Position numbers and translations under genes: made by a program
Source: Micavibrio sp.
Lineage (GTDB): Bacteria; Pseudomonadota; Alphaproteobacteria; Micavibrionales; CSBR16-224
Direction: 5' to 3'
Length of the DNA stretch: 36,352 nucleotides
Assembly: GCA_027047045.1 (NCBI GenBank)
Contig: JALTWL010000280.1
Coordinates: forward strand, 1 to 36,352
Shown: positions 30,270-35,843 of the stretch, one piece after another
Position numbering within the stretch: position 1 is the first letter of the stretch
Layout: each line of letters opens with the position of its first letter
The notes under the pieces: model-generated
What the model saw: the letters and a program-made list of their open reading frames with translations, nothing else
The model's database searches: none
Told to the model about the DNA's origin: nothing

Positions 30270-31133
30270 TTAAGGAGTTGGAATTTTTACAATACTAAGT
30301 GTTTTAGGTGTCTTTGCCTTTGGGTCATCAACCATGGTTAGTACAATTTCCCCACCTTTAAGGCTATATCCTTCTGGAAGTCTTAAAGGAATTGTTTTAT
30401 TTATACTATCAACCTCCCGATACATGCGGAGCCATTGTTTAGGAATAATATCAACAGCCTCCCTACCACTAACCATATGTTGGACAGATATAAAGCCTGC
30501 TGCCTCAGCATTACCAGTTCTAAGCGCATTTAAAAATAAAGATAATTTTCCCTTATCATCTTTAGCTAATTTAATTTTTTCAACAGAAATAGAAGATTCT
30601 ATTTTGCCTTTTTGTACAACTATTGGTATTGCAACACCATAAACGGCCTTAATTTCAAATGAAACACTGCCACCATCTGCTTGTGAAGACATCATTGTAT
30701 CTGCCTCGTGATTGCGAAGTGGGACTTCTTTAAAAAGTAAATGGCTGTGATAATCACCATCGGGCAAGTTCTTTCCACGTTTAGCCATAATACGCACAAC
30801 CTGTCTTTCCCCTGGTTTTAAAGTAAATCTTTTAGGCACAAAACGTAAAATAGGTTTTGCGGAATATTTAGCATTTTTAACAGTTTTAGTTCTACCATTT
30901 TCAAGCATTATCTGGTCAATAATTTTTAGGTCATAACGCCTTGGAATATCTGAGTGATTAGCAACATTTAAAATTTGCACACGTTGTTTAGGCTCTATAG
31001 AAACACGGTGCGGAGATACAAATAGCACACTGCTACGTTTTTTTTCTTTAGCAAAAACAGCCCCCAAAGGTAGCGCAGAAAAAATAAGTGCCAAAACGAC
31101 AAACACAGCTATAAATTTACTTTTCTTTTTCAT
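30270..31133 (-). CDS. PapD-like periplasmic fimbrial chaperone (divergent)
   Basis: Sec signal peptide (FIAVFVVLALIFSALPLGAVFA). Chaperone N-domain-like strands VSPHRVSIEPKQRVQILNVANHSD and ILRFVPKRFTLKPGERQVVRIMAKRGKNLPDGDYHSHLLFKEVP, matching the pattern PP.f.l.pg..q.vRi....lP.d.Es.f...v.eiP. Two-domain size (287 aa). Operon context with usher-like and subunit-like genes. Confidence 0.62.
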   Translation of the reverse strand: MKKKSKFIAVFVVLALIFSALPLGAVFAKEKKRSSVLFVSPHRVSIEPKQRVQILNVANHSDIPRRYDLKIIDQIMLENGRTKTVKNAKYSAKPILRFVPKRFTLKPGERQVVRIMAKRGKNLPDGDYHSHLLFKEVPLRNHEADTMMSSQADGGSVSFEIKAVYGVAIPIVVQKGKIESSISVEKIKLAKDDKGKLSLFLNALRTGNAEAAGFISVQHMVSGREAVDIIPKQWLRMYREVDSINKTIPLRLPEGYSLKGGEIVLTMVDDPKAKTPKTLSIVKIPTP

Positions 31134-31228
31134 TATCCATGTTCCTTTAAAATGGTATAACTATATACATATTTTTCTATAATAAAGATTACTGTAAAAG
31201 CAAGTAAAATAAAAGCAATAAAAGCCAT
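31133..31228 (-). CDS. Unannotated 31-aa hydrophobic micro-ORF, translationally coupled to the chaperone gene
   Basis: Found by hand translation: MAFIAFILLAFTVIFIIEKYVYSYTILKEHG. SD AAGGTGG (31239-31233) lies 4 nt upstream of the ATG (31228-31226). The stop TAA (31135-31133) shares one base with the chaperone ATG (31133-31131). One predicted TM helix. It is too short for the supplied ORF track. Confidence 0.3.
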   Translation of the reverse strand: MAFIAFILLAFTVIFIIEKYVYSYTILKEHG

Positions 31229-31283
31229 TTTGCCACCTTAAAATGACAAAAAAATCAAACCGACAACCGTTAGTTGCCTAAAA

Positions 31284-32702: not shown

Positions 32703-35700
32703 TTAATCCTTAACATTTGTGGCTTTTGGGACAATTCCAATAAAGCCTAGTTTTTTACCTTTTTGCCCAGTTTTTTCTTTGAAATCCTCGCCAGCCGAAT
32801 CATCTTCAGAATTGCCAGCACTATCCGCGCCCCCGTCGAGGCGGTGATGTTTCATGACGACATCACCATCGTATATTTCTGGTTCATCTGAAGACAATTC
32901 GAAGCGAGGCCCCGTCCCTTCACCACTATATTGCATATCTAGGGCTTTTAATGTTGGGAAAAACATATCATATAACCCAATGGGAAGGGACGGGAAACTG
33001 TAAAAACCGTCATATTCTGTTGTTGTTTTTGCAACTATTTCACCTTTTTGGTTAAGTAGCTGGATTGGCAAATCCGCAAGCTCTACTTCTTTGCCTGTCA
33101 TATCATTTAAAACGGTAACAATACCGCTTATCTCACCTAATTGCTGAATAGGCACATAAATTGGTCCGTTAATGCCACGCCTACCCAATATTTTTGTTTC
33201 TGCTTTTAGAGGCGTTAGATAAATATCAGGTAAACTGTCTTGTTCAATTGTAATTTTGTTAACTGCATTTGGCGCTAGCCCCGCAAGTACAGCCATGCCT
33301 TTTTCATTACTGGTTGTTTTTGTACCACGTAGCATATTTTTAAATTTAATGCCTGCTAGCAACTCCTCACCTTTTGTAAACATGCCGTCATTGTTGCTAT
33401 CTATAAACGGTTTTAGCATTATATGACCGTTATTTACGCTCTCACTTGTAATTTTATAGTCACCATGCAGGCTTTGAGGGATAAAATTATATGCTAAATT
33501 CATACCTAAACGCCTATCTCCTTTATCAGACAAAGAACCTGTTATGCCCAGCCTGTATTTATCTTGCTTAATATCAATACCACCAGAAAAAGTAGTTACA
33601 GGATTACTGCCAAAAGATGTATCTATTAAAGCGTTCAGTGCCAATTTTTCTGACAAAGTCTTTTGCCATTGCAAGGTTGCGTTATCTATTTTAGCGGGTC
33701 TGTCTAGGCTGTAATTTATGTTACTTCTAAAAATACCAATTGGAGATTTTCTGTATAAAGTAAGCTTACCCAATATTTGCTTGTAATTGCTATTGTCGCG
33801 GGTTATGTGGTCTATGTTGTTAGTTAGGCTCAAACCTAAGAAATTTGTTGAAAATCTATTTGATATGATAGTTTCTCTTGTCCCTGTATCAATTAGTCTT
33901 CTTTTTAAATCTATTGAATAGCTAAATTTAGGTAATTTTTTCATAGCAATATTCTGTGCAAAACGAATATAGCTTTCTTTTTCAACTCTTTTTATGTCTT
34001 TTGCATATTTTCTATGTCTTACATGTCCAGCCCCCCAGCTAGTATTTTTACCTAAATTACCTCTTACATCTAAGCCAACAGATACAGCGCCATCTCTATT
34101 TCTAAAAATATTTACTTGGCTAAAGCTATTTTCGCCAGAGCCTCTAATTCCCATCATAACACCGTTTAGATTTTCCTCATCAGTTGCGGGAGCAGTATAA
34201 TATCCACCGCTAATTGATAAATTTTTACTAAGCCCATATTCTCCCAGAAATGAAAAAGTAGGGTCAGTTTTGGGAGCTTTTTTCTTTCTTAAGTCAATCA
34301 ATGGAGTGTTAGACTGAACAGCGTTCATTTCATAAATAAATTTACCCGCATCAATCATATTATTGCCAAGATAGAGTCTTTCAAATTCCTCTCTTTGTTC
34401 CCCATTTGGCCCATACATTACAATACGAAATAAGTTAAAGCCTGTTTTAAGGGGCAGCGCCTCAAAACGATAATATCCATCGTCAGATATTCTTGTAAAA
34501 TCAAGTAACCTGTCATCTTGATATATTTCCACGTCCCACCCAGCAGGGGCGTATCCTTCTACTATATGTTCGTTTGGGTTTCTAACAAAACTAACTGGCG
34601 CATTGGAAAGCTTAATCCCCCTACCCTTTCTATTTCCGCCAGCAAGTGGAAATTGATATGTGCTTATATCACCAATTGCAAGCTGAGTTGCTTTTAGTGG
34701 ACCGCCAATTTTACCTTCAAAATCTTCCTTAGATAGTAAAATTTCACTTCTTTGCATTTGGCTACTGCCATCGGTTGCTTGATTAAAGCCTATGTCAGCC
34801 CGCATATCCATGCCCAGCAAGTCGCCCTGTAGCGTTACACTGGTCGTAGAATTTTGTAGTTTAGAGCCGTCTGTGCTCTCCCTTATGTTCATGCTCTGGT
34901 TTACTTGGATTGTCGGTAGTGAAAGCTTTTTATAAGGAAGCCGAATTACGTCTTTGTCAATCTTAACTACACCCGAGCGAGAAGTTTGCTTTTTTATATT
35001 TTCCCATTTTTTTAGCCTTTTTGCCCTTGCTTGAAATGGCAGTTCTTCTGATGTTGTTAAATATATCGTTAAGTCTTGAAAGTTAAAATTAAGCTCTATT
35101 GGTAACCATTTTTCTATTAGCTCTTTGCTTATATATATGTCATCTTCGTGGTTTTCTACAATTTCACCGCTAGCAATATTTTGCTTTTTGCCACGAATTG
35201 TTACAAATTTATAAGGTTTTTTTAATTCAAAACTATTTTTTTCTTTAATAAACCAGCCATTTGCTGTACCAGTTTCTGTATTTACTTCTATTGGAAAACC
35301 CAAAAGATTTGATAAATATTGTAACGGTACAATTATATTTTCACCGTCCATATAAATTAAAAATCCATCGTCTAAGACTATATCGTCAACAACCACTCCG
35401 ACAATCAGTAAGCTATCTTCTGTTCTTTCTTTATAAGAATAATTCCCCGTTGCTGCATCCTCAGTAAGCATAGAGTCCATATCTTGAAAATTGTCATACA
35501 TGTCATATATATCATTTTCGGTCGCATCTTCATTCTTATTGCCAGAGTCGCTATCATTATGTGAAATATTTTCTTGGGGCAAAGAAACACCCCGCTCTTT
35601 GTCAAGAGCAAGGTCAGAGCCAAGCGCCTGCCAAGAATCGTTGTTCTTAGCAGTTATATATTCCTGCCCAGCAACTAGCTGGACAAAGCTTCCCCTCTGC

Positions 35701-35843
35701 GGCTCAGTAACACCAAGCGCATCTCTCCCCGTCCATGCAACAGCATCGCTAACATGGCAGGTCAATAGGGCAAGCCCTAATATAAGCGTGTGGACTGCAA
35801 AAACGTAAGAAATACGTCCAGCCCAATAGAAACGTATAGCCAA
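32703..35843 (-). CDS. Large usher-like outer-membrane protein (1046 aa) with acidic N-terminal extension and C-terminal CarboxypepD_reg-like beta-sandwich
   Basis: Signal-peptide-like start (VFAVHTLILGLALLTCHVSDAVA). Usher N-domain-like LLIVGVVVDDIVLDDGFLIYMDGENIIVPLQYLSNLLGFPIE. Plug-like GWDVEIYQDDRLLDFTRISDDGYYRFEALPLKTGFNLFRIVMYGPNGEQREE. A long stretch of alternating beta-strand-like sequence. ISGIVTVLNDMTGKEVELADLPIQLLNQKGEIVAKTTTEYDGFYSFPSLPIGLYDM near the C-terminus. The predicted start codon is TTG (35843-35841) with no SD, so the start is uncertain. Confidence 0.55.
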   Translation of the reverse strand: MAIRFYWAGRISYVFAVHTLILGLALLTCHVSDAVAWTGRDALGVTEPQRGSFVQLVAGQEYITAKNNDSWQALGSDLALDKERGVSLPQENISHNDSDSGNKNEDATENDIYDMYDNFQDMDSMLTEDAATGNYSYKERTEDSLLIVGVVVDDIVLDDGFLIYMDGENIIVPLQYLSNLLGFPIEVNTETGTANGWFIKEKNSFELKKPYKFVTIRGKKQNIASGEIVENHEDDIYISKELIEKWLPIELNFNFQDLTIYLTTSEELPFQARAKRLKKWENIKKQTSRSGVVKIDKDVIRLPYKKLSLPTIQVNQSMNIRESTDGSKLQNSTTSVTLQGDLLGMDMRADIGFNQATDGSSQMQRSEILLSKEDFEGKIGGPLKATQLAIGDISTYQFPLAGGNRKGRGIKLSNAPVSFVRNPNEHIVEGYAPAGWDVEIYQDDRLLDFTRISDDGYYRFEALPLKTGFNLFRIVMYGPNGEQREEFERLYLGNNMIDAGKFIYEMNAVQSNTPLIDLRKKKAPKTDPTFSFLGEYGLSKNLSISGGYYTAPATDEENLNGVMMGIRGSGENSFSQVNIFRNRDGAVSVGLDVRGNLGKNTSWGAGHVRHRKYAKDIKRVEKESYIRFAQNIAMKKLPKFSYSIDLKRRLIDTGTRETIISNRFSTNFLGLSLTNNIDHITRDNSNYKQILGKLTLYRKSPIGIFRSNINYSLDRPAKIDNATLQWQKTLSEKLALNALIDTSFGSNPVTTFSGGIDIKQDKYRLGITGSLSDKGDRRLGMNLAYNFIPQSLHGDYKITSESVNNGHIMLKPFIDSNNDGMFTKGEELLAGIKFKNMLRGTKTTSNEKGMAVLAGLAPNAVNKITIEQDSLPDIYLTPLKAETKILGRRGINGPIYVPIQQLGEISGIVTVLNDMTGKEVELADLPIQLLNQKGEIVAKTTTEYDGFYSFPSLPIGLYDMFFPTLKALDMQYSGEGTGPRFELSSDEPEIYDGDVVMKHHRLDGGADSAGNSEDDSAGEDFKEKTGQKGKKLGFIGIVPKATNVKD

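Follow-up and report, generated by a model that had tools for sequence, protein, structure and literature searches.

Chaperone-usher (CU) pili, which are targets for drugs and vaccines, serve as the textbook example of how fibres are assembled across the outer membrane without ATP. They are classified by the sequence family of the usher, and the archaic class is defined by subunits with the SCPU (spore coat protein U) domain, PF05229. Here, we analysed a stretch of 36,352 nt from Micavibrio sp. (contig JALTWL010000280.1; referred to below as the window). Its minus strand carries the genes of an usher-like protein of 1046 amino acids (aa), two small proteins of 195 and 153 aa and a PapD-like chaperone of 287 aa. 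With a probability of roughly 0.8, this locus is a complete, very divergent CU system for the assembly of CU-type fibres. It would be a DUF4402-family system that works by a known mechanism and belongs to an apparently undescribed, widespread branch missed by current annotation.

Three classes of CU pili, the classical, the alternative and the archaic, have been distinguished so far, and they have little in common in sequence (PMC4654587, PMC10104325). The characterised CU systems make polymers, and the classical ones are said to be restricted to Beta- and Gammaproteobacteria (PMC4654587). The archaic class is spread broadly, including lineages of the Alpha- and Deltaproteobacteria type, and its chaperones are reported to be without the classical Arg/Lys anchors, while the alternative class is highly divergent and only weakly similar to the others (PMC4654587). 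A full-text search of the literature, with most subscription journals outside its reach, returned no paper on DUF4402 or PF14352. Nothing relevant was found in it on an usher with a carboxypeptidase regulatory-like domain, or on CU systems in sphingomonads or Micavibrio.

The structure of the 1046-aa protein was modelled with AlphaFold2 (AF2) on an alignment of 23 homologues, and the model was searched against the PDB using Foldseek. Its mean predicted local distance difference test (pLDDT) score was 75.5, and most of the 10-residue blocks between approximately aa 140 and 1000 scored above 80. The top 18 matches were all FimD or PapC, with E-values from 1.9e-26 to 2.3e-13. The best one, FimD 3rfz_B (E 1.9e-26), was aligned full length over 926 columns at ~11% identity. 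Further matches included 9fw9_D and PapC 7lhg_C, and the E-values of full-length FimD and PapC ran from 1.9e-26 to 1e-21. Entries that hold a translocation pore alone (2vqi, 3ohn and 3fip; PapC, FimD) matched at E 1e-13 to 1e-15. The next barrels that are not ushers, namely Occ/OpdK-type porins and TonB-dependent receptors, followed at 1e-5 to 1e-7, about twenty orders of magnitude worse.

The strand count and the plug position were read from the DSSP strand list, not from coordinates. The list begins with a signal-like helix and a disordered region (aa 30-134), which are followed by a beta domain (145-264) and a helix (269-291). Then come six long strands (311-413), an insert of six strands (426-492), eighteen long strands (502-789) and beta-sandwiches up to ~1004. 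The order of six strands, insert and eighteen strands corresponds to the usher architecture of an N-terminal domain (NTD), a plugged 24-strand barrel and the C-terminal domains (CTDs) CTD1 and CTD2. Judged from the model, the 1046-aa protein is predicted to have the usher fold, with an NTD, a barrel of ~24 strands, a plug between strands 6 and 7, and CTDs. The proposal of an usher-like outer membrane protein, made in an earlier reading of the window from its sequence only (hereafter the sequence-only reading), is thus borne out by the full-length FimD/PapC match and the plugged barrel. The NTD is presumed to be the docking site for chaperone-subunit complexes; a weak match to Cu_amine_oxidN1 covered it in 7 of the 23 homologues.

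The most conserved motif of the usher family, GWDVEIYQD...DGRY.F..LPL..GFNLFRIVLYGPNGE, sits in the plug, where the columns of G435, E439, G456, F460, G468, N470, Y477, G478 and G481 are invariant. For landmark mapping only, the profiles of the window families were compared by hhalign with FimA, FimC, FimD, Caf1, Caf1M, Caf1A and CsuA/B. The plug segment aligned to the plug region of Caf1A, starting at Caf1A residue 269, and the usher profile followed Caf1A in collinear order for 413 columns (E 5.9e-4), which reach from the plug to CTD1. In addition, aa 781-898 aligned with the CTD1 region of FimD (680-791) at 38% probability. PF00577 was matched weakly by 5 of the 23 homologues (best E 2.3e-4), and in the precomputed Pfam annotation by none of 24. 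A weak match to the TcfC E-set domain was seen in the plug region of 3 of the 23, and at aa 437-452 of the window protein (12.2 bits against a curated cut-off of 29.4). Taken together, the weak PF00577 and TcfC E-set signals and the collinear hhalign alignment point to homology with known ushers rather than to convergence.

The usher had also been noted as about 200 aa larger than usual. The length is real, but the extra residues lie mainly in the disordered aa 30-134 and in the C-terminal tail 1009-1046, which are poorly conserved, clade-specific and contain no extra folded modules. Most homologues align only from residue ~120-140, and the longest ORFs (open reading frames) of the relatives are mostly ~880-1150 aa, with a few reaching ~1420. 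The segment of aa 30-134 (35442-35756, minus strand) is acidic and of low complexity; it is kept in a 67%-identical relative and remains unaligned in most homologues. One usher homologue, P0016 (1243 aa), has a POTRA_2 domain of the ShlB type (PF08479, E 1.6e-17) and thereby joins an usher-like barrel to a POTRA domain of the two-partner-secretion type, which is unusual. In RefSeq, the usher homologues are named 'carboxypeptidase-like regulatory domain-containing protein' or 'hypothetical protein'.

The 195-aa protein itself gave no direct match to PF14352 (DUF4402) at E<=1, whereas P0027, which is 69% identical to it, carries this domain. An iterated profile seeded with the 195-aa protein recovered 139 ORFs next to usher homologues, and among 132 aligned subunit relatives PF14352 was present in 104 (best E 2.4e-34). 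Neither SCPU (PF05229, at E<=0.01) nor Fimbrial (PF00419) was found in any of the 132; in the sequence-only reading, too, the subunits had looked unlike both of these types. RefSeq names the subunits that neighbour homologous chaperones 'DUF4402 domain-containing protein'. On this family evidence, the 195-aa protein is classed as a divergent member of the DUF4402 family, and it is presumed to be the major fibre subunit.

The AF2 monomer model of this subunit, for which a 19-sequence alignment was used, had a pLDDT of 82.4. Residues 41-195 formed a confident all-beta core, while the 14 mature residues 27-40 lay outside it (pLDDT ~54-64). The signal peptide ends in ...TVNA|AS, the mature N-terminus alternates as ASTTLNATATFLTAITLT, and the C-terminal motif is ITVEVFYQ. 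Throughout the family we observed an AxA signal-peptidase site, an alternating small/hydrophobic (A/V...I/L) mature N-terminus, L-x-F-G and the C-terminal motif G-x-Y...V-x-V-x-Y-Q with a penultimate aromatic residue. The latter motif was the only part that aligned with FimA, Caf1 and CsuA/B; the Caf1 and CsuA/B reference sequences were 100% identical to their database entries. By eye, the N-terminus of the subunit resembles the N-terminal donor strand of Caf1, ADLTASTTATATLVEPARITL, in its database-confirmed sequence. The top Foldseek matches of the subunit were Caf1 in the Caf1M:Caf1:Caf1 complex (0.99), CsuA/B (0.93, 0.87), SafA, MyfA, PsaA and CooA. These matches fit a donor-strand-dependent pilin, though they are no proof of it, and residues 27-40 are a candidate N-terminal donor strand, with which their position outside the modelled core would agree.

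The gene of the 195-aa protein is preceded by a strong AAGGAG ribosome-binding site and is directly followed by an RNA hairpin with a minimum free energy (MFE) of -38 kcal/mol (z -3.46; 0 of 200 shuffles folded as well). A hairpin also stands in this place in L088 and L089, two relatives from the same habitat, but its stem differs in sequence. This hairpin is a candidate intra-operon attenuator or mRNA stabiliser.

DUF4402-family proteins of about twice the usual length were also encountered, namely P0032, P0035 and P0036 (333-348 aa, with PF14352), together with ORFs of 250-317 aa in the loci L053, L029 and L017. None of such length is present in the window. These double-length proteins could be the two-domain tip adhesins of the system.

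The 287-aa protein passed the Pfam PapD_N model (PF00345) narrowly, with 24.4 bits at a gathering cut-off of 23.0 (E 3.1e-5), and PapD_N matched 31 of its 73 relatives. RefSeq gives the name 'fimbria/pilus periplasmic chaperone' to a homologue on plasmid 2 of Polaromonas sp. JS666. Of the 73 family members, 71 have R43, which in collinear hhalign alignments of low probability corresponds to the classical carboxylate-anchoring Arg, that is, Arg8 of PapD/FimC and Arg20 of Caf1M. Column 135, which is equated with the second classical anchor, Lys, at a similarly low probability, is variable and holds R in 25 of the 73. Residues 157-173 consist of alternating hydrophobics that end in the invariant I-P-V-I-V-R-x-G, and this segment looks like a G1 donor strand. 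The length of 287 aa leaves ~105 aa after this strand, and from this length the chaperone would have a two-domain architecture. A search of the PDB with the chaperone profile (E<=1) returned only EfmWxLIP1, CupB2 and FimC; the entries 5d6h, 6fq0 and 6fqa, described as CsuC-CsuA/B complexes, were in the searched copy and were not matched. The earlier assignment of a PapD-like periplasmic chaperone is supported by PapD_N; PapD_C (PF02753) matched none of the 73.

The 153-aa protein belongs to a small family of its own, with 19 cluster representatives at E<=1e-3 in a phmmer search of 1.84 billion proteins. The family has a signal peptide, the invariant residues F49, G87 and E91, an invariant penultimate Y152 and two conserved Cys. 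Its gene keeps its place between the subunit and chaperone genes in the loci L002, L004 and L088. No Pfam family, PF14352 included, was found in the protein or in 17 relatives, and hhalign aligned the family to DUF4402 relatives at 37-67% probability over 23-25 columns only, so its membership in DUF4402 is not demonstrable. Both small proteins had been taken for DUF4402-type subunits; this applies to the 195-aa protein but not to the 153-aa one, the best hhalign value of which (67%) extends over 25 columns. We regard this beta-rich, secreted protein putatively as a minor subunit (tip, adaptor or terminator).

The distribution of the system was examined by scanning GTDB r232, with one genome for each species, for a degenerate pattern; at least 585 matched stretches encoded an usher relative, and the best 80 loci of the matches listed were analysed. 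These were from uncultured Alphaproteobacteria, Sphingomonadales, Micavibrio, Rickettsiales-labelled metagenome-assembled genomes (MAGs), Rhodospirillales, Magnetococcales, Vibrio, Xanthomonas, Alcanivorax, Desulfobacterales, Myxococcota, Bdellovibrionales, Acidobacteriota and a Chlorobiaceae MAG. The hosts were mostly uncultured, free-living or environmental. In a tblastn search with the chaperone, the system also came up on conjugative plasmids, namely those of Polaromonas (Betaproteobacteria) and of Novosphingobium. In the locus L084 (Polaromonas sp. JS666 plasmid 2, 1833-9436), the DUF4402-chaperone-usher cluster is bracketed by two IS6-family transposase genes, which suggests a mobile unit resembling a composite transposon.

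Of 81 loci, 72 have a chaperone homologue and one or more DUF4402-family ORFs no further than 4 kb from the usher gene, and most of the remaining nine end at contig edges. The usher, chaperone and DUF4402 gene families are thus tightly linked across phyla. The dominant gene orders were subunit-chaperone-usher (24 loci) and the same with two (19) or three (6) subunit genes, so that exactly these orders accounted for 49 of the 81. Meanwhile, the order of the window, in which the usher gene is followed by the genes of the 195-aa subunit, the 153-aa protein and the chaperone, recurred only in L002 and, in part, in L004, which are its nearest relatives. The order usher-subunits-chaperone, earlier listed as a departure from the classical loci, is therefore present in the window but is not a feature of the system: since the norm of the family is subunit(s)-chaperone-usher, it represents a local rearrangement.

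We then compared the locus with each of the known classes. With the classical systems (FimC/FimD/FimA, PapD/PapC and Caf1M/Caf1A/Caf1) it shares a PapD_N chaperone, a plugged 24-strand usher with NTD and CTDs, small secreted subunits and the best structural matches (FimD/PapC for the usher, Caf1 for the subunit). Common to both are also the chaperone Arg aligned to the carboxylate anchor (R43) and the penultimate-aromatic C-terminal motif of the subunit. It differs from them in that the usher is without significant PF00577, PF13954 or PF13953 and only ~11% identical, PF00419 (132 relatives) and PapD_C (73 relatives) are absent, the Lys anchor column 135 is not conserved and the hosts extend beyond the Beta- and Gammaproteobacteria. 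The archaic systems (Acinetobacter Csu, Pseudomonas CupE) resemble its family in their broad phylogenetic spread and in the usual order of several small paralogous subunits, chaperone and usher; CsuA/B ranks high among the structures that match the subunit (0.93), and the C-terminal motif GxY..VTVxF/Y is common to both. In contrast to the archaic class, none of the 132 subunit relatives carries PF05229, the DUF4402 profile aligned to CsuA/B over 15 C-terminal columns at 0.9% probability, the Arg anchor is kept, no Csu chaperone is among the PDB matches of the chaperone profile and no CsuE-like two-domain adhesin is found in the window. The likeness to the alternative class (CFA/I, ECP, Tcf) consists of the weak TcfC E-set matches in 3 of 23 ushers and of CooA among the weak structural matches, whereas no sequence match was significant and the E-set score of 12.2 bits is below the cut-off of 29.4. 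As to DUF4402, the 104 of 132 relatives with PF14352 stand against the lack of a match in the 195-aa protein itself. By its predicted structure and its genetic linkage the locus fits a CU system, while it falls outside the sequence families of each known class.

Beyond its probable nature as a CU system, we lean, at odds only a little better than even, towards the view that this is a fourth deep CU class beside the classical, alternative and archaic ones, with DUF4402 proteins as its pilins and with ushers that escape PF00577. Such a class would comprise several hundred species in Pseudomonadota, Desulfobacterota, Myxococcota, Bdellovibrionota, Acidobacteriota and Chlorobiota, besides conjugative plasmids. 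Classical-like features, namely the Arg anchor and the Caf1-like N-terminal extension, would be mixed in it with an archaic-like gene layout. The suggestion of an uncharacterised branch of CU-like fibre assembly agrees well with the usher fold, PapD_N, the DUF4402 family and the cross-phylum linkage.

Several results weigh against a CU system. The sequence links to known CU families are sub-threshold, with hhalign probabilities of 6-38%. The usher has no PF00577 match at E<=1 and no significant match to PF13954 or PF13953, so that the Pfam usher models that had been proposed for its recognition failed on it, and a search of PDB sequences with the usher and its 23-sequence profile returned only the SdrD B-domain at the C-terminus and no usher. 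PapD_C is missing from all 73 chaperone relatives. The Foldseek E-values of the subunit are weak (best 0.02, none <=0.001), and no tip adhesin is recognisable. In L003, the usher gene (4068-7022) is an orphan, as neither a chaperone nor a subunit gene occurs within 12.7 kb, and in L004 an usher gene and two subunit genes are not followed by a chaperone gene (8840-9200); the system is patchy among the closest relatives of the window locus. Finally, the DUF4402 CU family is known from genes and predicted structures alone.

The same results can be read in other ways. The usher-like pore might export the DUF4402 proteins as monomers or as a loose surface coat and make no donor-strand polymer, in which case the locus would encode an usher-derived secretion system. 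We consider this improbable, even though the pilin matches of the subunit are statistically weak, the tip adhesin is lacking, polymerisation is a prediction and the similarity of DUF4402 to FimA, Caf1 and CsuA/B is confined to the C-terminal strand motif. The alternating mature N-terminal extension is conserved family-wide and lies outside the modelled core as a donor strand would, the top structural matches are pilins that depend on donor-strand complementation, and the loci usually carry two or three paralogous subunits, as is the case for heteropolymeric pili. To our knowledge, every characterised CU system makes polymers, which also counts against monomer or coat export.

It is less probable still that the locus, lying in a low-GC, alphaproteobacterium-like genome, is a decaying or silent remnant from which no fibre is made. 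Such decay could be seen in the rearranged gene order, in the TTG start of the usher gene and in the nearest relatives that have lost parts (the orphan usher of L003, L004 without chaperone). However, the four ORFs are intact and 64-72% identical to those of relatives, the signal peptides and the strong ribosome-binding site at the major-subunit gene are kept, and the G+C content at third codon positions (GC3) is like that of other genes. As for the 1046-aa protein being an outer membrane receptor with a carboxypeptidase regulatory domain, or a porin, that is functionally unrelated to its neighbours, we give this next to no weight. The only Pfam matches above noise are indeed SdrD_B (921-987, E 1.7e-7), CarboxypepD_reg and a SpaA-type domain, and the RefSeq name agrees with them, but together they cover only aa ~914-987. 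The model matches ushers with E-values some twenty orders of magnitude below those of TonB-dependent receptors or porins, and on this Foldseek ranking the TonB-receptor or porin reading was rejected. The linkage to chaperone and DUF4402 genes in 72 of 81 loci is a further argument against it.

For the CU system that we prefer, we infer donor-strand complementation and exchange, polymer formation and the roles of the 153-aa protein and the hairpin as follows. The four proteins would be exported to the periplasm by the Sec signal peptides read from their sequences. There, the PapD-like chaperone would capture the 195-aa subunit and supply the strand missing from its incomplete Ig-like fold (donor-strand complementation), and the chaperone-subunit complex would dock on the periplasmic NTD of the usher. 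The next subunit would then displace the chaperone strand at the usher by means of its N-terminal extension (ASTTLNATATFLTA), in which small and hydrophobic residues alternate (donor-strand exchange), and the linear polymer would thread through the 24-strand barrel after the plug has moved aside. The 153-aa protein would most likely act as a minor subunit at the tip, as an adaptor or as a terminator, and the hairpin after the 195-aa gene probably shifts expression in favour of the major subunit over the genes downstream.

The features of the locus are collected in Table 1. The four larger ORFs were called identically in the source metagenome assembly (ENA ERZ23495399, scaffold_1196, 38.4 kb), and they have homologues at 64-72% identity and beyond; these ORFs are real, conserved genes. 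For none of these four proteins did a search of NCBIfam yield anything useful.

Table 1. Features of the CU-like locus; positions are window coordinates and all ORFs are on the minus strand.
Feature	Position	Strand	Remarks
Usher gene	32703-35843	-	1046 aa, TTG start
Usher: N-terminal hydrophobic signal-like segment			read by eye
Usher: N-terminal periplasmic domain, aa 145-264	35052-35411	-	confident beta domain in the model; inside the FimD alignment
Usher: transmembrane barrel, aa 311-789	33477-34913	-	DSSP strands; PapC/FimD pore matches
Usher: plug-like domain, aa 426-492	34368-34568	-	after barrel strand 6; model and hhalign to the Caf1A plug region
Usher: C-terminal periplasmic beta-sandwich domains, aa ~800-1004	32832-33446	-	the second is transthyretin/SdrD_B-like
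Presumed major subunit gene	31893-32480	-	195 aa
RNA hairpin	31767-31881	-	right after the 195-aa gene; MFE -38 kcal/mol
Putative minor subunit gene	31284-31745	-	153 aa
Micro-ORF	31133-31228	-	31 aa; not upheld as a gene
PapD-like chaperone gene	30270-31133	-	287 aa, signal peptide
Presumed operon promoter region	35844-36062	-	219-nt AT-rich intergenic gap, 3' of the upstream ORF

A hydrophobic micro-ORF of 31 aa had been counted among the genes of the operon in the sequence-only reading. It was not called in the source assembly. L088, the closest relative, is a locus of the same metagenome and has a 153-aa protein that is 64% identical. Its spacer can be aligned, with ATAAAGG in place of the ATG, and there is no equivalent ORF; L002 has only an unrelated 23-aa ORF at this position. 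Hydrophobic short ORFs are expected in T-rich spacers. The micro-ORF was consequently rejected as a gene on account of the lost ATG and the lack of an equivalent in L088. Overlapping it, in the spacer between the 153-aa and chaperone genes, a 22-nt stretch, GGCTTTTATTGCTTTTA(T/A)TTTA, at ~31204-31226 (minus strand) is conserved with L088, whereas the ORF itself is not. This stretch could be a regulatory element.

The gap upstream of the usher gene is presumed to hold the operon promoter. A promoter scan returned two sigma-70-like matches, at 35988-35961 and 35982-35954, which were not above shuffle expectation, and no Rfam match was found in 30000-36352. The upstream ORF (36063-36350), the 3' end of which adjoins the operon, is gpsA-like by eye only.

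The genes of the operon, and especially both ends of the usher gene, had also seemed richer in G+C than the flanking genes, and horizontal acquisition had been proposed from this. The first part is weakly true: the G+C content of the operon region is 0.367 vs 0.340 in the rest of the window, and that of the usher gene is 0.48 in the first 300 nt and 0.447 in the last ~140 nt. However, the difference does not extend to GC3, the mean of which is 0.252 for the four operon genes and 0.236 ± 0.030 for the 27 other ORFs taken as genes. The GC-rich ends of the usher gene encode low-complexity tails that are disordered in the AF2 model, and in the 195-aa gene the raised G+C sits in codon position 2 (0.546) because its product is rich in Gly, Ala and Thr. 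With GC3 equal to that of the other window genes, a horizontal transfer deduced from G+C was discarded; the composition of the operon gives no sign of recent acquisition.

Beyond the chaperone gene, 20 nt from its end, lie convergent genes of the Flp/Tad pseudopilin type (27803-30250, plus strand), namely two TadE genes (176 and 182 aa) and one that is TadG-like and encodes a vWA domain (456 aa), so that adhesive-fibre modules of two different kinds are neighbours here. Further along, a 253-aa protein (26872-27633, plus strand) matches the NCBIfam models of the ankyrin-type Legionella Dot/Icm effectors AnkY and AnkH, with scores that do not come near the cut-offs. A host-associated alphaproteobacterium is hinted at by these weak matches, by the low G+C (0.344) and by an ATP12 gene.

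An usher that is invisible to the standard model means that adhesin surveys would undercount such fibres in environmental Alphaproteobacteria (Sphingomonadales, Micavibrio and Rickettsiales-like MAGs), predatory bacteria, Acidobacteriota and others. For DUF4402, the present reading provides a testable function, and the system would serve as a new, distant outgroup against which universal features of donor-strand exchange and of usher gating could be told from the others. Its presence on the conjugative plasmids of Polaromonas and Novosphingobium means that it may spread surface-attachment traits. If it is truly a fourth class, the DUF4402 systems would represent a large unstudied reservoir of adhesive fibres in mostly uncultured environmental bacteria.

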